NCBI GenBank assembly: GCA_963747235.1
Contig: CAVVEU010000023.1
Location: 1 to 16,007 of the forward strand
Direction: 5' to 3'
Source: an uncultured Candidatus Rokubacteria bacterium
GTDB taxonomy: Bacteria; Methylomirabilota; Methylomirabilia; Rokubacteriales; CSP1-6
DNA length: 16,007 bases
In this document: positions 2,447 through 15,946 of the stretch, in pieces
Layout of the letters: each line of letters starts with the position of its first letter
Position numbering within the stretch: position 1 is the first letter of the stretch
The notes under the pieces: generated by a model
What the model saw: the letters and a program-made list of their open reading frames with translations, nothing else
The model's database searches: none
What the model was told of the DNA's origin: nothing
Program-made: the position numbers and the translations under genes

Positions 2447-5400
2447 CTAGTCAGTCGAACGGGGGGAGGCCAGATCGACAGCCTCGGTGCCCTTTTTCAT
2501 GGGCCGCCGGCGCGACTCCGCGAGCCGCTCGACCGCCACGTAGAACGCCGGCACCAGCAGCACGCCGATCACCGTCACCGCGAGCATCCCGCCCACCACC
2601 GTGGTGCCCATCGAGTTCCGGCTGGCCGCGCCCGCCCCCGTCGCGAACACCAGCGGCAGCGAGCCCAGGATGAAGGCGAAGGACGTCATCAGGATGGGCC
2701 GGAAGCGCAGGCGGGCGGCTTCGCGGGCCGCCTCCTGGATCGGGGCCCCGTGCTCCCGGCGCTCCTTGGCGAACTCCACGATCAGGATGGCGTTCTTGCT
2801 CGCCAGCCCCATGAGGAGCGCGAGGCCGATCTGGGCATACACGTCGTTGGCGAGCCCGCCGAGCCAGAGAGCGCCCAGGGCGCCGAGGACGCCCAGCGGC
2901 ACCGCCAGGAGCACCGCCAGGGGGACGAGCCAGCTCTCGTACTGCGCGGCGAGGACGAGGAACACGAAGAGCGCGGAGAGCGCGAAGACGAATCCCGCCC
3001 GGCTGCCCGCCTCGAGCTCCTGGTAGGCGAGGCCCGTCCACTCATACGACATGCCCGCCGGCATCACACTGCGCGCCACGTCCTGCATGGCCGCGATGGC
3101 CTGACCGGAGCTGGCCCCGGGCGCGGTGTCGCCCGCGATCTCCGCCGTCCGGTACAGGTTGTAGTGGGAGATCGTGTCGGGCCCGGTGATCGGCTTCACC
3201 GTGACGAGCGTGCTCAGCGGCACCATCTGCGCGGGCTGCCCGCTCGTGCCGGGCTGGCTCCGGACATAGAGCCGCGCGACGTCGCTGGGCGAGGCGCGGA
3301 AGCTCGGCTCGGCCTGAAGCTGCACCCGGTACACGCGCCCGAACGCGTTGAAGTCGTTGACGTAGAGCGAGCCCAGGAAGATCTGCAGGCTCGAGAAGAC
3401 GTCCGACAGCGGAATGCCGAGCGCCTTGGCCTTGGCGCGGTCCACCTGCGCGTCGAGCTGCGGCACGCCCGGCCGGAATCCCGTGAAGGTCGCGGCCAGC
3501 TCCGGCCGCTGGCGGGCCGCGTCCATGATCTTGCGCGCGGTCACGTCGAGCTCCTGGAGCGAGCCGCCGGCCACGCTCTGCAGCTCGAACTGAAACCCGC
3601 CGCCCGAGCTGATGCCCCGGATCGGGCGGCGGCGGGAAGACGACGATGGAGGCCTCCTGGATGCTGCCGAGGCGCGCGCGCAGGCGGCCCAGGATCGCGC
3701 CGGCCTGGAGCTCACGCGTCTTCCGCTTCGACCAGGGCGTGAGGCGCGGAAAGAGGGAGGCGACGTTCGGGCCGTTGACGCCGGTGATGAAGCTGCGCCC
3801 GCCGATGGCCACCACGGTCTCGACGCCGGGCGTCTCCAGCAGGATCTTCTCGATCTGACGCACCACCGCGTCGGTGCGCTCGACCGAGGCGGCGTCGGGA
3901 AGCTGGACGTTGACCAGGAGATAGCCCTGGTCCTCGGTGGGCGCGAACCCGGTGGGCACGATGCGGAGCAGGCCGTAACCGGCGGCGCTCAGGAGCAGCA
4001 GCGCTACCACCGCGAGGGCCGATCGCCGGACGATGCGCCGCACGGTCCGATCGTAGCCATTGGTGAGCCGGAGGAAGCCCGCGTCCCAGGTCCGGGCCAG
4101 CCAGCGCTTCCGGGTCGCGCCGGCGGGCCGGAGGAGGAGCGCGCAGAGCGCCGGGGTCAGGGTGAGCGCGTTCAGCGCGGACAGCGCCACCGAGACCGCA
4201 ATGGTCAGCGCGAACTGCCGGTAGAGCTGGCCGGTGATGCCGGGCAGGAAGGCGATGGGGATGAACACCGCCATCAGCACGAGCGCGGTGGCGATGACCG
4301 GGCCCACCACCTCCGCGGTCGCGCGCCGGGCGGCCTCGCGGGCGCCCAGCCCCTCCTCCTCGAGATGCCGCTGGGTGTTCTCCACCACCACGATGGCGTC
4401 GTCCACCACGATCCCGATCGCGAGGACGAGCCCGAAGAGCGTCAGCGTGTTGATCGAGAACCCGAACAGGCTGATCACCGCGAAGGTGCCCACGAGCGAC
4501 ACCGGGATCGTCATGGTCGGGATGAGGGTGGCCCGCCAGTCCTGGAGGAACACGTAGACGGTGAGGACGACGAGGCCGATGGCGATGAGGAGGGTCAGCA
4601 CGACCTCTTCGATCGAGACCCGGACGAACTCGGTCGTGTTGTACGGGCGCGTATGGGTGACGCCGCTCGGAAAGCTGGGCGCGAGCCGGGCCACCGCGGC
4701 CTGCACGCCCTTCGACACGTCGAGGGCATTGGCGCCGGGGAGCTGGAAGATCCCGATGAGCGCCGCCGGCGAGCCGCCGACTCGCCCGAAGGCCCCGTAG
4801 CTCTGGGCGCCCAGCTCCACGCGGGCGACGTCGCGCACGCGGAGCACCGAGCCGTCGGACCGGGTGCGGAGGATGATGTCCTCGAACTCGGCCGGCGTCG
4901 AGAGCCGCCCGCGTGTGGTGACGGTGTACTGGAACTGCTGGCCGGGCAGCGACGGGGGCTGGCCGATCTGCCCGGCGGCGGCCTGCAGGTTCTGCTCCCG
5001 GACCGCATCGGCCACATCGCCCGCGGTGAGCCCGAGCCCGGCGAGCCGGTCGGGGTTCAGCCAGAGCCGCATGCCATAGTCCCGCCCGTTGAACACGGTC
5101 ACCTGCCCCACGCCGGGCACCCGCGCCAGCACGTCCACCACCTGGAGCGTGGCGTAGTTCGCCAGGAAGAGCTCGTCGCGGCTCCCGTCGGGCGAGATCA
5201 AGGCGACGATCTCGACCAGGTCGGGACTCTGCTTGGTGATGGTGAGCCCCTGCCGGGTCACGTCCGCCGGAAGCTTGGCCTGGGCGATGGAGACCCGGTT
5301 CTGCACGTTCACGGCCGCGATGTCGAGGTCCGCGCCGACCTTGAACGTCACGGTGAGCGTCATGGTCCCGTCGCTGCCGCTTCTGGAGGACATGTAGATC

Positions 5401-5627
5401 ATGTCCTCGACGCCGTTGACCTGCTGCTCGATGGGCGTGGCCACCGTCTGCTCCACGACCTCGGCGCTGGCCCCCGGATAGGTGGCGGTCACGACCACCT
5501 GCGGCGGGGTGATCTCGGGGAACATCGCGATCGGCAGGAACGGGATCGCCACCGCGCCGGCCACCACGATGACGATGGCGAGCACGGAGGCGAAGATCGG
5601 GCGGTCGATGAAGAAGTTGACGAACAC
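2447..5627 (-). CDS. RND multidrug efflux permease (HAE1, AcrB/MexF-like); +1 frameshift at about 3624-3626
   Basis: Motifs MFVNFFIDRPIFASV, GLVLAIGIVVDDAIVVVEN, GLASKNAILIVEFAK and RLRFRPILMTSFAF. It is split between ORFs 3042..5627 and 2447..3715. Removing one base from the GGG at 3624-3626 restores VFPPPPIRGISSGGGFQF and a protein of about 1059 aa. Confidence 0.93.
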
Positions 5628-7027: not shown

Positions 7028-8402
7028 TCATGGGCTAACGTCTCCCCTCGCGCGCGGATGCAGGACGTCGATCGCCCAGCGCACGTCCAGCCGCTCCCCG
7101 AACCACGGTGCGAGCCCCGTGCGCGCATGAAGCTTGAGGCCCTGCGCGACGTTCTGTGCCCGGATTGCTCCGGCCGGATCGGCGGGCACCGCCGCCGGTA
7201 CCGGTACGTTGGGCAACGGCCGACCATCCGGCCGTCGGAACTGGAGGGTCCCGTCGGGCCCACGCTCGACCTGGTAGCCCTCCTCGTGCACTGCGCGGTG
7301 ATGGCGGCGACAGAGGAGCGCCAGATTCGATAGTTTCGTTGGGCCCCCGTGGGCCCAATGGCGCACGTGATGCCCCTCGGCGATCCGAACAGTGCAGCCC
7401 GGGAAGCGGCAGGTCTTGTCCCGATGCTGCAATGCCCGCCGTAGCGCCGGAGGAATCGTCCGGGTTCGAGCTCCGACTTCCACCACCCGCCCGTCCTCAT
7501 CGTGCCGCATCACCACCCGGCTTGCGTCGCACGCCAGCCGCTGCGACGTTCCCGCGGGAACGTGCGGGCCGCTCTTCCAGCTCCGACTGTCCGGGCTGGG
7601 CCGCATTCGCCAGGACGGCGGCATCCACGTGGACCACCACCTGATAGCGCTCCCCTGTGGCTCCGGGATCGAGCTCGTGATGCAGCGCGGCCTCGGCCAG
7701 CAGGGCCAACGCGTCCGCCTGCTGCTGCGGCCGGGTCGGGGTCTCCGACGCCGGGTCGGTGGCCGGTACGGCGGCCTCGCTGGCGCGGCACCGTTGGTAG
7801 AGCGTTTCGCGGGCGGCGTCCAGGGCCCGCAGGAGTAGTGCGCCCGCCTCCGGCGTCAGCCTCCCACGTAGTACCACGGTGCCGTCCTCATCCTGGTAGA
7901 CGTGCAGGGCGCGGCCCGCGTGCTGCCGCGTGGCCTCACGCGCTTCGGCCTGCTGGTCCAGTCGGCGCCAGCCCCGCACGATGCTCTCCACGTGGACCGC
8001 CGTGCCCGCGCGCCCCACCGCGAGCAGGCGCCCCTCAGTCTCCGGGGTCGCGATGCGGGTCAGGGCGCGCACCTTGGCGTAGGAGAGCTCTCCGCGCGCC
8101 AGCGCCTCCGCCAGGGCCGGCAGCGTCCCGAGGGCGCGGGCTACGCGGACATGCTCGCGGGCGGCGCCGGGGGCGAGTCCGATGCGCCAGGCGAGCCACT
8201 CGGCACAGGAGCGGAAGCCGTTGGCCCAGCCTTCGCGGGCGTCGAACTCGCGGATGAGCGCGAGGAGCCGGGCGGTCGCCGCTTCGAGGTGGGCCGAGAG
8301 CTCGGCGATCTGGTCGCCCAGGCGATCCAGGTCCGCGAGATGCGGCGGCACGGGCTGCGAGGGCTGCAACGGGGCGGGTACTTCCGGTGGGCGTGTCTCC
8401 AT
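7028..8402 (-). CDS. DUF222-domain HNH endonuclease (13E12 repeat-like); +1 frameshift at about 7571-7573
   Basis: N-terminal part: LIREFDAREGW..GFRSCAEWLAWR, GELSYAKVRALTR, ADALALLAE, YQVVVHVD. C-terminal part: RLACDA, RRALQHRDKTCRFPGC, GHHVRHWAHGGPTKLSNLALLCRRHHRAVHE. The two parts are in adjacent frames and join if one base is removed. Confidence 0.88.
7546..7563. repeat. Perfect 18-bp palindrome inside the HNH gene
   Basis: ACGTTCCCGCGGGAACGT equals its own reverse complement and encodes HVPAGT. Confidence 0.85.
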
Positions 8403-10872: not shown

Positions 10873-11408
10873 GAGCGGGGGAACCCCTGCGCGGCCTTCA
10901 CCGCGCGGAGCTGCTCGAGGTGATCGGCCTCGTGGCGAATGTGGAGCAGCCACCACTGCGCCAGGTCCATCTCGCCCAGCGTGAAGTGCCGCCACTTGAG
11001 CCCGCGCGGATCCACCGCGGCCAGCCGCTCGATGGACTGGCGGCTGCGCTCCCGGATCGCCTTCAGATCGGCGAGCAGCCGGTCCAGCGCGTGGCCCCGC
11101 TCCGGGTAGACCACCTCCGGCGCCTTCGCGGGGCCGGGAGGGGGCGCCGGAACCGGCGCGAAACTCTTCAGCTCGGAAGGAAACGACGGCAGGGGCTGCG
11201 GCGCGTCCTTGAAGAGCTTGGAGGTCAGCTTCCCGGTGCCCACCTCGGCCAGGGTCAGGTGATGGAGGATCTCGCCCACCGACCACTCCTGCTCATCCGG
11301 GCGCCAATCCGCCTGGGTCTGGCTGAGCCCTTCCGTCTCCTTCAGGAGCTCGGAGCGGACACTCTGCAGATCGTTCCACAACGCTTCGACGGGGACCGGC
11401 CAGGCCAT
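10869..11408 (-). CDS. DinB/YfiT family protein
   Basis: ATG at 11408 with GGAGGA RBS; WSVGEILHHL and HIRHEADHLEQL metal-binding His motifs; 179 aa. Confidence 0.88.
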   Translation of the reverse strand: MAWPVPVEALWNDLQSVRSELLKETEGLSQTQADWRPDEQEWSVGEILHHLTLAEVGTGKLTSKLFKDAPQPLPSFPSELKSFAPVPAPPPGPAKAPEVVYPERGHALDRLLADLKAIRERSRQSIERLAAVDPRGLKWRHFTLGEMDLAQWWLLHIRHEADHLEQLRAVKAAQGFPRS

Positions 11409-11442: not shown

Positions 11443-12018
11443 ATGAGCGAGCCCACTGGTACTCCGGCGGCCGGTTCGGCCTGGTCCCGCACGCCCTGGC
11501 GCCGGACCTCGACCCGGCCGGTCTACACCAACCAGTGGATCTCCGTCCGGGAGGACGTGGTCACGCTGCCGGACGGCCGCAGCACGCTCTACGGGGTGGT
11601 GGAATGCAGCGAGTGCGTCGGGATTCTCCCCTTCCTCGACGTGAACACGGTCCTCCTGGTGGGGCAGTACCGCTACGTGGCGGGCGACTTCTTCTGGGAG
11701 ATCCCCACCGGCGGCCAGCACGCCGGCGAGACATCGGCCGAGGCCGCGCAACGCGAGCTGGCCGAGGAGGCGGGGTACGAGGCCGGGCGCCTGGTCGAGC
11801 TGGGCGACTTCCATACCTCGAAGAGCATCATGCGCGAGGTCGCTCACCTCTACGTGGCCCATGACCTGCGCCCAGCCTCACGCGCGGCGGACCCCACCGA
11901 GTTCATCGAGCGGCGCGCGTTCCCGTTCGCCGAGGTGCTCGCCATGGTGGAGCGCGGCGAGATCAAGGACGCGATGACGATCATCGCGGTGCTGCGCGTG
12001 GCGCGAAAGCGCGGGTAG
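11443..12018 (+). CDS. NUDIX hydrolase (ADP-ribose pyrophosphatase-like)
   Basis: Nudix box GGQHAGETSAEAAQRELAEEAGY, plus LLVGQYRY, WEIPTG and GEIKDAMT. Confidence 0.92.
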   Translation: MSEPTGTPAAGSAWSRTPWRRTSTRPVYTNQWISVREDVVTLPDGRSTLYGVVECSECVGILPFLDVNTVLLVGQYRYVAGDFFWEIPTGGQHAGETSAEAAQRELAEEAGYEAGRLVELGDFHTSKSIMREVAHLYVAHDLRPASRAADPTEFIERRAFPFAEVLAMVERGEIKDAMTIIAVLRVARKRG

Positions 12019-12022
12019 GCGC

Positions 12023-13114
12023 GTGGCCTCTGCGCTCGAGCACGTTGCCTGGGAGCGGTGCCTGGTCGAACCCCGCCCGGACCAGGCCCTGGAATCCTAC
12101 GCCCGGCGGAGGTGGGGGATACCCAGCCCGGCGATCCGCTACTTCGTGCCCGTCCCATGGATGGCCCGAGCGCTGATCGATCTACACCCCGAGTTAGGGC
12201 TCCTGATGCGCCTCGACCAGGCGGTGGCGGATCTCGTGACGCTGGTCGTCAGTCAGGAGAACTCGTGTCGGTTCTGCTACGCAGCTGTGCGGGCGATGCT
12301 GTGGGTTCAGGGAATGAGCACTGGGCGAATCCAGCGCGTGGAGCAGGACCTGTCGCGAGCGGATCTCTCGCCGCGGACCCGGGCCGCCATCACCTTCGGG
12401 CGGAGCCAGTCGCGCTCCGGTCCGCCGGCGGCGCGCGCCGCTCGGGAAGCGCTTCACGGCGCGGGCTTCGGCGCCGACGAGATGAAGGAGATCGCGTTCA
12501 CGGTGGCCATCACGGACTTCAGCAACCGCGCCCACACGATCCCCGCGATCCCCTCGCGCCCGGTTGAGCGGATCCCAGATCAGCTCCACATGCGGCTGCT
12601 CCGGCCCCTGGTCAACCGGATTCTCAAGAAGCATCGCTACCGTGGCCAGGCGGCGCTGCTGGATCGCGTGCCGGCGTATCCCTACGTCCGGCTCGTGCAG
12701 GCCTACGAGGGCTCTCCTATCGCGCCGACGCTGGCGCGCACGCTTGAGGAGATGTGGGCCTCCCCTCACCTCACGCGACGGTGCAAGCTCCTGATGCTCG
12801 CCGTCATCGCCCGGGGGCTGGCGTGCGAGGTGTGCGCGCTGGAGGTGGGCGAAGCCCTGCAGCGGGAAGGCCTGAAGGAGACGGCGCTCACGCAGGTCCT
12901 GACCCATCTCGACGCCCCCGAGCTGGACCCCGTCGAGCGTCTACTGGTGCCCTTCGCTCGAGAGACGATCTGGTTCGAGCCGGCGCCGATGCAGCGCCGC
13001 GCCCGTGCCCTGCGCGAGCGCCTCTCGAGCCCACAGATCCTCGAGGCGATCGGGGTCGCGGCCCTGGCCAACGGGCTCTGCCGGATGGGCGCCATGGTGC
13101 TGGATCACCCATGA
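12023..13114 (+). CDS. Tandem AhpD/carboxymuconolactone-decarboxylase-fold protein with two CxxC motifs
   Basis: 363 aa with two repeated helical modules, LVVSQENSCRFC...EMKEIAFTVAITDFSNR and LAVIARGLACEVC...QILEAIGVAALANGLCR, typical of AhpD-like domains. Confidence 0.75.
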   Translation: MASALEHVAWERCLVEPRPDQALESYARRRWGIPSPAIRYFVPVPWMARALIDLHPELGLLMRLDQAVADLVTLVVSQENSCRFCYAAVRAMLWVQGMSTGRIQRVEQDLSRADLSPRTRAAITFGRSQSRSGPPAARAAREALHGAGFGADEMKEIAFTVAITDFSNRAHTIPAIPSRPVERIPDQLHMRLLRPLVNRILKKHRYRGQAALLDRVPAYPYVRLVQAYEGSPIAPTLARTLEEMWASPHLTRRCKLLMLAVIARGLACEVCALEVGEALQREGLKETALTQVLTHLDAPELDPVERLLVPFARETIWFEPAPMQRRARALRERLSSPQILEAIGVAALANGLCRMGAMVLDHP

Positions 13115-13902
13115 CGCCGACCGTCGTCGTGGCCGCCCTGCTGGTGCTCCTGGCGGTTCTCGTCGGCACGCTCTATCGCCAGCGGCGACGGACCGAGAGC
13201 CTCCAGGCGCAGCTCGACGCGGCCGCCGCCGAGCTCCAGCATCTTCAGGACGCGTGCTCCCGGCTGGCGCCCGCCGGGGTCGTGCAGCGGCTCATCGCGG
13301 ATGGCGTGACCGCGGGCACCCAGGCCGCCGCCGAGCGGAAGGTGGTGACCGCCCTCTTCGCCGACCTCGTGGGCTATACCGCGATGAGCGAGCGGCTGGA
13401 ACCGGCCGTCCTCGCGCGCGTGCTGAACGGCTACTTCCAGCGCATGAGCGACGCCATCCACGAGCACCGCGGCCACGTCTCCACCTTCCTCGGTGACGGC
13501 ATCCTGGCCTACTTCGGCGCGCTCCAGCCGAACCCGTGGCAGTGCAACGACGCCGTACGGGCCGCGCTGGCCATGCGGGCGGCGATGCGCGAGTACAACG
13601 TCGAGCTCGCGCGCGAGGGGCTACCCCCGCTGGCCGTGGGGATCGGCATTCACCGCGGCCCGGGGCTGGCGGGCCTGGTGGGCTCCCGCGAGCGGATGGA
13701 GTACGCGTTTGTGGGTCGCACCGTGAACCTGGCCGCGCGCGTCCAGGCGCTCACGCGCACCCATCAGGTGGACATCCTCATCACGGAGGCGCTCCGCCCC
13801 GAGCTCGACACGCGCTTCGTGCTGGCGTCCATGCCCGCGGAGCCGGTGAAGGGTATTGCCGAGCCGGTGGTGACCTACGCGGTGCGGGAAGCACTCGGCT
13901 AG
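13111..13902 (+). CDS. Class III adenylate/guanylate cyclase-family protein with a single N-terminal TM and a coiled coil
   Basis: ATGA overlap with the upstream gene. N-terminal VVVAALLVLLAVLVGTLY anchor, then LFADLVGYT, FLGDG, GIGIHRG, TVNLAARVQ and VKG; 263 aa. Confidence 0.9.
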   Translation: MTPTVVVAALLVLLAVLVGTLYRQRRRTESLQAQLDAAAAELQHLQDACSRLAPAGVVQRLIADGVTAGTQAAAERKVVTALFADLVGYTAMSERLEPAVLARVLNGYFQRMSDAIHEHRGHVSTFLGDGILAYFGALQPNPWQCNDAVRAALAMRAAMREYNVELAREGLPPLAVGIGIHRGPGLAGLVGSRERMEYAFVGRTVNLAARVQALTRTHQVDILITEALRPELDTRFVLASMPAEPVKGIAEPVVTYAVREALG

Positions 13903-13956: not shown

Positions 13957-14065
13957 CTCAGGACTTCCCGAGGAGGTACATCTCGCCGCTCGGGGCGGGC
14001 AGGCCGCCCCGTCCCCGAGGCGTCCACGCTGAACACCCCCGCCGAGACGGGCGCGTTGTTCCCCG
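13957..14065 (-). pseudogene. Degenerate second copy of the rskA 3' end with an internal deletion of about 71 nt
   Basis: 13957-14008 matches 15184-15235 (4 mismatches in 52 nt) and 14009-14065 matches 15307-15363 (4 in 57). It encodes GNNAPVSAGVFSVDASGT // GGLPAPSGEMYLLGKS*. Confidence 0.9.
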
Positions 14066-14088
14066 TTACTCTGGGCGATGGACTCGTC

Positions 14089-14209
14089 GTTCATCGAGCG
14101 GCGCGCGTTCCCCTTCGCCGAGGCGCTCGCCATGGTGGAGCGCGGCGAGATCAAGGACGCGATGACCATCCTCGCGGTGCTGCGCGCGGCGCGGCGCGGC
14201 GGAGGCTAG
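14089..14209 (+). pseudogene. Second, divergent copy of the NUDIX gene 3' end
   Basis: 14089-14193 matches 11901-12005 with 5 mismatches in 105 nt. It encodes FIERRAFPFAEALAMVERGEIKDAMTILAVLRAARRGGG*, against ...AEVLA...TIIAVLRVARKRG* in the intact gene. Confidence 0.92.
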
Positions 14210-14258
14210 CCAGCGGTCACGCCGACGCGGCCACCCGGAGCACCCCTGGTCTCGCTCT

Positions 14259-15155
14259 TCACATCCCGGCTACCCGGAAATCATCCAGAGTGGGCCGGAC
14301 GTGAATATCCGTAAGGTCGTACCTGGGCACGCGTCCGTAGAAGGATGCCCACTGCGAAAACGTACTTGGTGGGCCGACTATGTAGTCGCACGCCGCCAAG
14401 GCGTACAGGTCTTGAATCACCGAACCATTGCTCGCACATGTCGGTTGCCGAAAGTGATCCAAGGCCTGTTGCGAGTCGGAACAGACGAGAACCCCTGTAC
14501 GCTTGTTGCCAAACAGCGTGCGGACGTGCTCGACCGCTGCCGCGTATTGTTCAATCGCATAAAAGTATCTCCCATGGATGAATTGTCTGTAGTCGCCATG
14601 GCGAATGTGCAGGCCAATCAGCACGTCTACTCGGTCGCGTGTGCGCGCCGTCAACTGCGCAACGCGCTCGGCGTCGTCTGAGCGCGGTCGGAAATAGTGT
14701 CGCACCGTATCCGCATGTTTCCTGAAATTGGTGTTATCGCGCACAAGCGGTCCTTGAAAAACGATGAGCCCGGGAGCACGCACTCTTTCGCGGAACGCGT
14801 CCGAATCCAGACTGACTACGCCCGCGCGGGTGACGAGAGTTGACTCGTACCCCGACTCGATATGCTGAATGTATCTGCCCTGCAATGCTTTGGTCCGCCC
14901 GCGCGCGAGTGAATCGGCCAAACGCAGACTCCAGCGCGCCACCCGGGCGCGGCGCGCCGGCGTTGGTGCCAGCAAGGATCGACGAGCAGGAAAGCGACAG
15001 AAGAGATCCTGCGCGGTCGTCTCAAACGAGTCCGCATAGGCTCCAAAGAGCAAGTGTGCGACGGAGGTGTCATGCTCCGCCGCACACGCGATCAACGCAC
15101 CGAACATGAAGAGCTGGTTGCCCAGTTGATTTGCCTGCCCCGCAATGACAAACAC
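14259..15155 (-). CDS. Alpha-1,2-fucosyltransferase-like glycosyltransferase (GT11)
   Basis: Probable GTG start at 15155 (MFVIAGQANQLGNQLFMF). GT11 motifs LGNQLF, IGLHIRHGDY, VCSD and DLYALAACDYIVGPPSTFSQWASF. GC is visibly lower than in the flanks. The longer 519-aa ORF start overlaps rskA and is unlikely. Confidence 0.85.
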   Translation of the reverse strand: MFVIAGQANQLGNQLFMFGALIACAAEHDTSVAHLLFGAYADSFETTAQDLFCRFPARRSLLAPTPARRARVARWSLRLADSLARGRTKALQGRYIQHIESGYESTLVTRAGVVSLDSDAFRERVRAPGLIVFQGPLVRDNTNFRKHADTVRHYFRPRSDDAERVAQLTARTRDRVDVLIGLHIRHGDYRQFIHGRYFYAIEQYAAAVEHVRTLFGNKRTGVLVCSDSQQALDHFRQPTCASNGSVIQDLYALAACDYIVGPPSTFSQWASFYGRVPRYDLTDIHVRPTLDDFRVAGM

Positions 15156-15184
15156 GATACGGTTCCGTACGCAGGTGTTCCGTC

Positions 15185-15946
15185 TCAGGATTTGCCGAGG
15201 AGGTACATCGCGCCGCTCGGCGCGGGCAGGCCGCCGGCGGGCTCGAGCGTCACCGCGAACGCGTTGACGGTCGCCACGCCGGGCAGCGGCCGCACCGAAA
15301 GGCTCCCCGTCCCCGAGGCGTCCACGCTGAACACGCCGGCCGAGACGGGCGCGTTGGTGCCCGCGATGGCCCAGAGCTGATACGCCTTGCCCGCCGGCGC
15401 CTCGGGCAGCCCCGCGGCGACGAAGACGCCGCCGGCCCTTGCGTGCCACATCATGTGGCCGCGCGCGGTCGGCGCGGGCGCCTGGCCGGCGAGCGCGACC
15501 ATCTGGGTGGCCGGGTCGCGCAGGATCGTGATCACCGTCTGCTGGCTTCGCAGCTCCGCCTTGAGCTGCTCGGCGTCGCGCGCCAGGGCGTCGAGCCGCT
15601 TCTCGTAGGTGGACGAGATCGACCAGCCGACCACGATCGCGACGAGTCCGGTGGCCATGGCTCCGCTCAGCACCACCGGCCAGATGGCGCGGCGAGCACG
15701 CGGCAGCGGGCGCTCCGGCGGGCGGGCCGCCGCGATGCGCTCCATGAGCGCGGCCTTCACCGCGGGCGGAGGCGTCTCCGGCGCCGCGGCGGCCAGGTCC
15801 GCGAGAGTCCCCTCGCACTCGCGGAGCGCGGCCACCGCCTCGGGGTCGCCCGCGCGCAGGAGCGTCTCGAAGCGCGCGCGGTCCCCGACCTCGAGCCCTC
15901 CGAGCGCGTACGCCGCCGCCAGCTCGCCGATCTCTTCGCGGTTCAT
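15185..15946 (-). CDS. rskA: Anti-sigma factor, RskA (anti-sigma-K) family
   Basis: ELAAAYALGGL N-terminal anti-sigma domain, PPPAVKAALMERI, one TM, and the RskA C-terminal motifs GKAYQLWAI, PVSAGVF and FAVTLEPAGG..PSG. Confidence 0.88.
   Translation of the reverse strand: MNREEIGELAAAYALGGLEVGDRARFETLLRAGDPEAVAALRECEGTLADLAAAAPETPPPAVKAALMERIAAARPPERPLPRARRAIWPVVLSGAMATGLVAIVVGWSISSTYEKRLDALARDAEQLKAELRSQQTVITILRDPATQMVALAGQAPAPTARGHMMWHARAGGVFVAAGLPEAPAGKAYQLWAIAGTNAPVSAGVFSVDASGTGSLSVRPLPGVATVNAFAVTLEPAGGLPAPSGAMYLLGKS

Follow-up and report, generated by a model that had tools for sequence, protein, structure and literature searches.

Bacterial class III nucleotidyl cyclases are generally seen as one-chain devices in which a sensor is fused to the catalytic domain, and true AhpD-type enzymes carry a His four residues past the second Cys of the CxxC motif, where it serves as a proton relay. 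Here we describe a 1.9-kb pair of overlapping genes, A and B, that encode a double AhpD-fold protein and a small membrane-anchored class III cyclase, respectively. The pair lies on a contig of an uncultured Candidatus Rokubacteria bacterium (CAVVEU010000023.1; 16,007 nt, 70% G+C), which was analyzed in its entirety and is hereafter called the window; it belongs to a metagenome-assembled genome of 5.57 Mb, for which named homologs likewise indicate Candidatus Methylomirabilota/Rokubacteria. Described systems offer partial counterparts to both partners. In sestrins, which are sensors that bind a signalling complex, one of the two lobes keeps the redox Cys (PMC4674687, PMC11429811), and the relevant passages of a 2024 review define the family by a DDYDY motif in an electronegative hinge that binds GATOR2 (PMC11429811). 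The same passages name two bacterial fused double-AhpD analogues of sestrins, YciW of E. coli and a CMD protein of a Candidatus Rokubacteria bacterium, and report that an AhpD dimer fused in silico resembles Sestrin2 (PMC11429811). On the cyclase side, the Pycsar anti-phage systems resemble A-B in being two-gene units with a small, sensor-less class III-type cyclase and an accessory distribution; PycC models match B, about as well as the generic Pfam cyclase model does.

An earlier note on the window, made from the sequence without database searches, had proposed that A is a trans-acting sensor of the cyclase and knew of no described system with this pairing. Our full-text literature searches, whose scope did not extend to subscription journals, likewise turned up no publication in which a cyclase is the partner of an AhpD/CMD protein. 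The A-B pairing appears to be undescribed, and its novelty appears to lie in a separately encoded partner in cyclic-nucleotide signalling.

The adjacency of the two genes extends far beyond the window. A scan of one genome per species, using an alignment of 49 diverse A proteins and retaining the best 80 of 275 confirmed relatives, placed an orthologous cyclase directly 3′ of A in 72 of 80 loci by tblastn. Five of the eight misses are contig edges in or just past A (L047, L058, L086, L088, and L111; L and G numbers are our handles for loci and genomes) and one is a fragment of A (L095), leaving two true exceptions (L106 and L104); in 6 of the 72 loci A or B is read in two frames, through frameshifts or long-read errors. 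In a metagenome scan with 16 distant A members as query (best 80 of 398), whose A proteins are mostly 31–42% identical to that of the window, the cyclase lay directly 3′ of A in 52 of 80 loci; 18 were cut and 10 had at least 400 nt downstream and no cyclase, so that 52 of the 62 informative loci have one. Both sets combined, the cyclase follows A in 124 of 160 loci and in 124 of the 137 that are not cut at A. Among the window's genome (G000) and 60 relatives, of which the unpublished G029 was counted only as lacking the pair, full-length A occurs in four of 61 genomes (G000, G015, G002, and G059), full-length orthologs of the cyclase (E ≤ 1.8e-83) occur in the same four, and A and B are adjacent in all of them; the next cyclase match (2.4e-44) covers the catalytic domain only. 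Adjacency across taxa, on which the earlier note had staked its proposal, was thus found in the genome and metagenome sets alike and, as exact co-occurrence, among the 61 genomes.

The two reading frames are also coupled. In the window the ATG of B falls within the final sense codon and TGA stop of A, giving the ATGA junction that had been read from the sequence beforehand. Frames overlap by 4 nt in 53 of 73 pairs of the genome set and abut in 8 (61 of 73), and in the metagenome set B starts 3 nt before the end of the A stop in 20 of 52 pairs, 6 nt before it in 21, and abuts in 3 (44 of 52). An all-against-all comparison of open reading frames (ORFs) from 83 loci yielded no third recurrent gene; the largest other cluster, a short-chain dehydrogenase, was present in 9 of 83 loci, and the next clusters (luciferase-like monooxygenases, amidohydrolases, and acyl-CoA synthetases) are likewise common families. 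In 89% of pairwise sequence comparisons B is the better conserved of the two proteins (mean identity 58%, against 49% for A). The pair is also present in a cultured organism, Bradyrhizobium erythrophlei GAS478 (L035), in which A and B are each 74% identical to those of the window. We conclude that A-B is a tightly coupled gene pair in many soil bacteria, that a functional two-protein unit is well supported, and that A and B very probably act jointly in one cyclic-nucleotide pathway. That unrelated genes merely travel together by chance is scarcely credible: with 29 PF00211 matches in the window's genome (28 over the cut-off) any single adjacency could be fortuitous, but an orthologous cyclase in 124 of 137 uncut loci, down to about 31% identity in A, with codon overlap and exact co-occurrence, could hardly be.

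The exceptions show that the two-lobe family is somewhat wider than the cyclase-linked module. In L106 a PNP_UDP_1 phosphorylase lies 3′ of A and a SurE 5′-nucleotidase gene 5′ of it, a nucleotide-metabolism setting instead of a cyclase, and in L104 the 3′ ORF has no Pfam match. Part of the family forms a side branch without the cyclase: in five metagenome loci (L160, L172, L177, L181, and L194) the gene 3′ of A encodes a conserved, secreted-looking protein of 310 aa (P0273), whose start resembles a signal peptide and which matches nothing in Pfam; in the three of these that were tested (L172, L181, and L194) an aldehyde dehydrogenase lies 5′ of A. Finally, in L164 the 3′ gene encodes a Redoxin/AhpC-TSA protein, and at least once, therefore, a two-lobe protein takes the AhpD-like place beside a peroxiredoxin-like gene.

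A has a single Pfam domain, CMD (PF02627; 40.8 bits, cut-off 23). Its AlphaFold2 (AF2) model is of high confidence (predicted local distance difference test, pLDDT, 94.8; predicted template modelling score, pTM, 0.94), and its two halves align to each other with CxxC on CxxC (BLASTP E 4e-4, 24% over 58 aa). When the model was compared with solved chains by VIA-align, N-lobe residues 10–187 matched 2oyo, 6k40, 3c1l, 2prr, and 6ohi at Z 16.4–17.0, i.e., “peroxidase-related” AhpD-core chains and the debrominase Bmp8 (6ohi); phmmer also related this lobe to 3c1l by sequence (8.6e-8), again with CxxC on CxxC. In the C-lobe, residues 229–361 matched AhpD of P. aeruginosa (7xw1, Z 17.3), and residues 153–363 matched 2ijc (Z 17.2). 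Across the whole chain the best match was human Sestrin2 (5dj4_B; Z 22.3, root-mean-square deviation (rmsd) 3.1 Å over 271 residues at 8% identity), covering model residues 18–363, and in shape the sestrin analogy drawn in the earlier note is borne out. Foldseek alone placed one-lobe AhpD proteins first and Sestrin2 at rank 18–24, with a poor global rmsd.

The likeness to Sestrin2 (5dj4, 5t0n, 5cuf) consists of one chain with two AhpD-like helical lobes in pseudo-two-fold arrangement. We found no sequence homology between the two proteins, whose structural alignment has 8% identity, the DDYDY hinge of sestrins is absent from A, and the partner is GATOR2 in the one case and a cyclase in the other. 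A search for a true sestrin identity was negative, in that phmmer against all solved chains (E ≤ 1) returned only AhpD-type proteins and the DDYDY motif is absent from the translation. Since artificial fusion of an AhpD dimer is enough to produce a resemblance to Sestrin2, that of A may be a simple consequence of fusing a homodimer. On the model, then, “double AhpD fold, sestrin-like” is correct for the shape of A, and A is not a sestrin. YciW and the Rokubacteria CMD protein share with A a prokaryotic single chain with two AhpD-like lobes, and the passages that describe them mention no link to a cyclase (PMC11429811). The Rokubacteria protein, which is named there without an accession, may or may not belong to the A family; its halves are said to “closely resemble each other” (PMC11429811), whereas those of A are diverged to the degree given above.

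Conservation within the A family is uneven between the two lobes. The residues C82, R83, C85, G97, G148, E156, R169, P195, and L296 are invariant in 102 of 102 proteins, as are R313, Q324, N350, and R354 in the C-lobe. The earlier note had assigned a CxxC to each AhpD module; both are present in the window, but the second is complete in only 46 of 102 family members. A is thus one conserved Cys-Arg-x-Cys lobe joined to one degenerate module with invariant polar residues of its own. The family is large (579 representatives at E ≤ 1e-3 and 192 at E ≤ 1e-30, with clustering at 50%), database labels for it are only the generic “CMD family protein” and “AhpD family alkylhydroperoxidase,” and an ESM Atlas search with A gave nothing beyond generic CMD clusters.

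The AhpD-core proteins (TIGR01926; 3c1l, 2prr, 2pfx, 2oyo) match the N-lobe by sequence and by structure, but they are single lobes of about 180 aa, whereas A is a two-lobe single chain with no His past the CxxC; we know of no cyclase partner for this family. Position 89, four residues past C85, is Val in 28, Gln in 14, Thr in 8, and Ile in 4 of one set of 63 A proteins, and Thr in 12, Gln in 8, Asn in 8, Phe in 4, and Val in 2 of a second set of 38; in neither is it His. Two enzyme assignments were rejected: a canonical alkylhydroperoxidase of the M. tuberculosis AhpD type, for want of the proton-relay His, and a TIGR01926 peroxidase-related enzyme, at 58.8 bits against a curated cut-off of 81.8. 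The motif of a one-lobe CMD paralog in the same genome reads CAHCTQLH. Some one-lobe CMD paralogs were flagged as containing an internal TGA; at the locus checked, L002, selenocysteine was rejected, the TGA there being a stop codon that had been read through.

B likewise has a single Pfam domain, Guanylate_cyc (PF00211; 76.1 bits, cut-off 21.9). In its AF2 monomer model (pLDDT 87.3) a helix (residues 2–50), a break (51–54), and a second short helix (55–63) lead into the catalytic domain (75–261). The RQRRR stretch directly after the hydrophobic run at residues 5–21 would, by the positive-inside rule, place the remainder of B in the cytoplasm; the transmembrane (TM) anchor itself is the least conserved portion of the protein (mean pairwise identity 31%). 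Its closest solved relative is 2w01 (2e-32, residues 66–258), which we take to be the homodimeric cyclase Cya2 of Synechocystis, with the specificity pair Glu/Gly. B shares with Cya2 and other class III cyclases the catalytic domain and its metal and transition-state residues, and also a helical segment and hinge ahead of that domain. All 102 module cyclases have the metal-binding Asp residues D85 and D129 and the transition-state R210, and 100 of them have N206; the catalytic residues of B align with their counterparts in 2w01 and 1wc0; P54 in the hinge, W143, and T215 are invariant as well (102 of 102). B is thus, by its residues, a catalytically competent class III cyclase. It has no sensor domain of its own, which the earlier note had read from the layout of TM anchor, short coiled coil, and catalytic domain. 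It differs from sensor-fused class III cyclases in having no sensor on the same chain, control being proposed to come from a separate, translationally coupled protein.

The substrate of B is less readily predicted. In class III cyclases Lys with Asp or Thr specifies ATP, and Glu with Cys or Gly specifies GTP. The corresponding positions of the window cyclase are T125 (Glu in 2w01; Lys in 6fht, an engineered protein) and A199 (aligned to Gly), so that it fits neither the adenylate nor the guanylate rule. Among the 102 module cyclases the first position is Thr in 48, Lys in 26, Ser in 13, Glu in 8, Ala in 4, and His in 3. A cyclase tree built with the base-specifying columns left out divides into a Lys/Glu half (34 rows) and a Thr/Ser/Ala/His half (68 rows), with seven changes in total. 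Judged from these residues, the module exists as Lys, Glu, and Thr/Ser versions, and the cyclases of the window's clade, with Thr/Ser in place of the purine-specifying Lys, may make a product other than cAMP or cGMP. The cyclase complement of the window's genome is unusually large; its class III cyclase-domain matches lie mostly in frames of 450–1300 aa.

The Cys residues of B bear on how the two proteins could communicate. The earlier note had pointed to a Cys in the short coiled coil (LQDACSR), and Cys49 is indeed there in the window; across the 102 module cyclases, position 49 is Cys in 52 and Phe in 50, with one change on the tree. In the window's clade Cys49 co-occurs with Cys145 (both Cys in 44 of 63 cyclases). 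There is, however, no Cys at all past the TM helix in 9 of 63 and 18 of 38 cyclases (27 of 101), and the A partners of these proteins keep the N-lobe CxxC. With so many partner cyclases free of Cys while the CxxC of A is invariant, whatever mechanism the family shares cannot consist of a disulfide relay from A to B; it would have to be one in which A changes in conformation or in binding.

The same residues enter into a different account, in which the two proteins share a pathway without regulating each other by contact: A would act as a thiol enzyme of the AhpD type, detoxifying or reducing some compound, while the cyclase signals the same stress, or A would keep the thiols of the cyclase reduced. 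We regard this as unlikely. It draws on the membership of A in the AhpD/CMD superfamily, its invariant CxxC, the A-like gene beside Redoxin/AhpC-TSA in L164 and those beside aldehyde dehydrogenase, and the Cys49/Cys145 pair of the window's clade. However, the Cys-free cyclases whose A partners retain the CxxC mean that thiol upkeep is not general, the proton-relay His that the one-lobe paralog has is absent from A, and strict co-occurrence with codon overlap exceeds the usual loose sharing of a pathway.

The explanation we put forward, with about even chances of being right, is that A is a trans-acting sensor subunit of the cyclase B, as predicted from sequence. A and B would form a self-contained two-protein cyclic-nucleotide signalling module, in which B is held at the membrane by one TM helix, followed by the helical linker, and the sensor is supplied by A. 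The whole-length match to Sestrin2 provides a precedent for this fold as a sensor. Translational coupling would produce A in fixed proportion to B. A would bind to the cyclase dimer on the cytoplasmic side, either at the linker and hinge or at the catalytic domains, and the state of the CxxC pocket of A (oxidized or reduced, or with a small ligand or metal bound) would alter this contact and with it the cyclase output; the Cys49/Cys145 pair may add a layer in the window's clade. Of the 100 highest-scoring column pairs in a covariation analysis between the proteins (mutual information with average product correction, 102 pairs, effective number of sequences (Neff) 70, phylogeny uncorrected), 63 involve the cyclase linker; the columns concerned are gappy or clade-defining (49, 52, 69–72), and we take this as a lead only. 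More tentatively, the module may be a prokaryotic counterpart of sestrin signalling, in which a redox or small-molecule cue at the Cys-Arg-x-Cys pocket gates the cyclase in trans, A being a dedicated and separately encoded subunit, with the Thr/Ser clade perhaps making a product that is neither cAMP nor cGMP.

Signalling in the reverse direction would use the same two proteins. The cyclase would then stand upstream, constitutive or regulated in some other way, and A would be its effector, a thiol oxidoreductase switched when the cyclic nucleotide binds; the binding site might be in the C-lobe, which in Sestrin2 is the lobe that takes up leucine. Pairs of a cyclase and an effector gene are a known layout, B has no sensor of its own, and the invariant C-lobe residues Arg313, Gln324, Asn350, and Arg354 (102 of 102) could hold a phosphate. 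On the other hand, A lacks any known receptor domain, whether of the cyclic-nucleotide-binding, GAF, or another type, and the coupled order, with A first and the cyclase second, is opposite to that described for Pycsar in the passages concerned (PMC11224242). In addition, the invariant residues of A are unchanged across cyclase switches between Lys, Glu, Thr/Ser, Ala, and His; that they stay fixed while the base-specifying residue changes is a mild argument against A reading the nucleotide and fits a place for A upstream. We therefore consider the reverse direction improbable.

Several observations weigh against A as the sensor of B. The canonical substrate Lys is absent from the window cyclase, whose activity is predicted from its sequence. 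The correlation between the pairwise identities of A and B (r 0.85) is what would be expected of any co-inherited genes and is silent on contact. A search for longer homologs found no fused A-cyclase protein, which is weak evidence, and four longer family members (P0216, P0165, P0107, and P0137) show only CMD or nothing. Lastly, about one in six distant members of the A family adjoins genes other than a cyclase; the fold is therefore not exclusive to cyclase pairs, and A may itself be an enzyme.

If A is a sensor, cyclic-nucleotide signalling has an input logic that is new, and the large uncharacterized A family would gain its first function. Bacteria, too, would then have put the fused-AhpD fold to use as a signalling sensor, a point relevant to the origin of sestrins. 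With so small a pair, a cultured carrier, and natural Lys, Glu, and Thr/Ser variants, the question is directly testable.

The setting of the pair in the window (Table 1) is that of an insert, in agreement with the description of the two genes as one cargo block in the earlier note. The pair is flanked by a 105-nt direct repeat, whose copies correspond to the 3′ end of a NUDIX gene (a second tblastn match of NUDIX residues 152–191 was also seen in L001), and in 7 of 15 same-genus loci the site is empty, the NUDIX gene and an RskA anti-sigma gene converging with a gap of at most about 40 nt. Three further same-genus loci (L115, L118, and L121, in G014, G011, and G016, respectively) have other inserts of about 0.5–1.1 kb, and the NUDIX/RskA junction seems to be a recurrent insertion spot. 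Among same-genus loci only G000 and G015 carry A-B there; in G002 the pair lies on a different contig, where a luciferase-like monooxygenase and a dehydrogenase flank it.

Table 1. Coordinates of the A-B pair, its parts, and its flanks in the 16,007-nt window.
Feature	Positions	Strand	Basis or details
NUDIX gene, intact	11443-12018	+	Pfam 55.6 bits
Direct repeat, copy 1 (3′ end of the intact NUDIX gene)	11901-12005	+	105 nt
Gene A	12023-13114	+	GTG start, 363 aa, TGA stop 13112-13114; tandem AhpD/CMD-fold (sestrin-like), predicted cytoplasmic
N-lobe of A (aa 1-187), conserved redox-type lobe	12023-12583	+	Structural and phmmer matches
Invariant CxxC of A, C82-R83-F84-C85	12266-12277	+	C82, R83, and C85 in 102/102
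C-lobe of A (aa 188-363), degenerate AhpD module	12584-13111	+	Structural matches
Second CxxC of A, C268-E-V-C271, not family-conserved	12824-12835	+	C268 in 93/102, C271 in 46/102
ATGA start/stop overlap of A and B	13111-13114	+	Sequence
Gene B	13111-13902	+	ATG start 13111, 263 aa; predicted single-TM class III nucleotidyl cyclase
N-terminal TM anchor of B (aa 5-21), then RQRRR	13123-13173	+	Hydrophobic run; within helix 2-50
Helical linker of B with hinge (aa 23-63); Cys49 at 13255-13257, invariant Pro54	13177-13299	+	Model and conservation
Cyclase catalytic domain of B (aa 75-261)	13333-13893	+	Conserved catalytic residues
RskA 3′-end remnant, past the cyclase	13958-14065		blastn: 13958-14009 and 14007-14065 match RskA 3′ region of G015 (L031)
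Direct repeat, copy 2 (orphan NUDIX 3′ end)	14089-14193	+	95% identical to 11901-12005

In the window the order is NUDIX end, A-B, RskA remnant, copy of the NUDIX end, another insert, and RskA. The NUDIX/RskA junction thus occurs twice in tandem with a different insert in each (13958-14202; 11901-12005; 15185-15360), an arrangement that resembles the scar left when a circularized homologous fragment integrates by a single crossover, although it could be an assembly artefact of two strain variants. The second insert (14203-15184), ahead of the intact RskA gene, is a stretch of about 1 kb with a G+C content of 0.63–0.65 in 1-kb windows, compared with about 0.70 elsewhere. An ORF at 14259-15818 on the minus strand has weak matches to NodZ and a family 11 glycosyltransferase (GT11, fucosyltransferase) at aa 386–493. 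As a real glycosyltransferase gene it was rejected, having a low G+C content at third codon positions and overlapping RskA in another frame, and it is mostly spurious; the region is probably a gene fragment in the second insert.

By their record titles the hosts of the module comprise Methylomirabilota, Alpha-, Beta-, and Gammaproteobacteria, Myxococcota/“delta proteobacteria,” Verrucomicrobiia, Binatia, and Eisenbacteria; bin labels of hosts may be unreliable, and one row is titled Klebsiella. In the module tree one clade unites the Alphaproteobacteria (support 99) and another joins Myxococcota and Binatia (support 100), and Methylomirabilota rows occur at no fewer than three places inside the proteobacterial radiation, beside Eisenbacteria, Verrucomicrobiia, and “delta proteobacterium” bins. 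Because the tree mostly tracks class-level taxonomy, the module has for the most part been inherited vertically and has crossed between phyla in some cases. A tblastn search of PLSDB (E ≤ 1e-20) gave no plasmid copy.

This distribution bears on whether A-B is a Pycsar-type anti-phage module with a new effector, in which infection would activate the cyclase and its product would turn A into a growth-arresting enzyme. The patchy, accessory occurrence (4 of 61 related genomes), the insertion at a junction that is empty in relatives with another locus in G002 of the same genus, the non-canonical specificity residues, and a best PADLOC score for PycC of 80.1 bits on B would all fit. That score, however, is close to the 76.1 bits of the generic Pfam model and so does not discriminate. 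Pycsar effectors have a cyclic-nucleotide-binding domain together with a TM or TIR part, according to the passages that describe them (PMC11224242); A has none of these and no PADLOC match. The genes around the pair are of housekeeping or efflux type rather than defense genes, and the module tree largely follows class-level taxonomy, unlike fast-moving defense genes, with no plasmid copy. We consider an anti-phage role quite unlikely, and A as a sensor of the cyclase remains the reading we prefer.

The neighboring genes in question encode an MFS transporter, an RND pump and its fusion protein, a thiolase, TtuA, and a ThiS-like protein. Gene A starts (GTG) 4 nt past the NUDIX stop, and no sigma-70-like promoter or intrinsic terminator was found between positions 11300 and 14400. 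The gene call recorded for A on the contig (P0012) is 302 aa long (83% coverage), whereas homologs are mostly 362–365 aa at 99–100% coverage (120 listed), which supports the 363-aa start; in addition, the family has a conserved N-terminus (W10 in 98 of 102). The deposited start is probably too far downstream (P0012; window 12023-12205).

Two minor observations concern the remainder of the window. The DUF222 gene region at 7051-8336 shares 72.6% DNA identity with L033 9697-10968 of G059, whose genome belongs to the same order but to another family; the matching stretch directly adjoins A-B in G059 and lies 3.5 kb from the pair in the window. The AcrB-type RND pump gene is broken into two overlapping frames on the minus strand (2447-3715 and 3042-5627) that span Pfam ACR_tran positions 1–660 and 659–1020; this is a frameshift, reflecting either a pseudogene or an assembly error.

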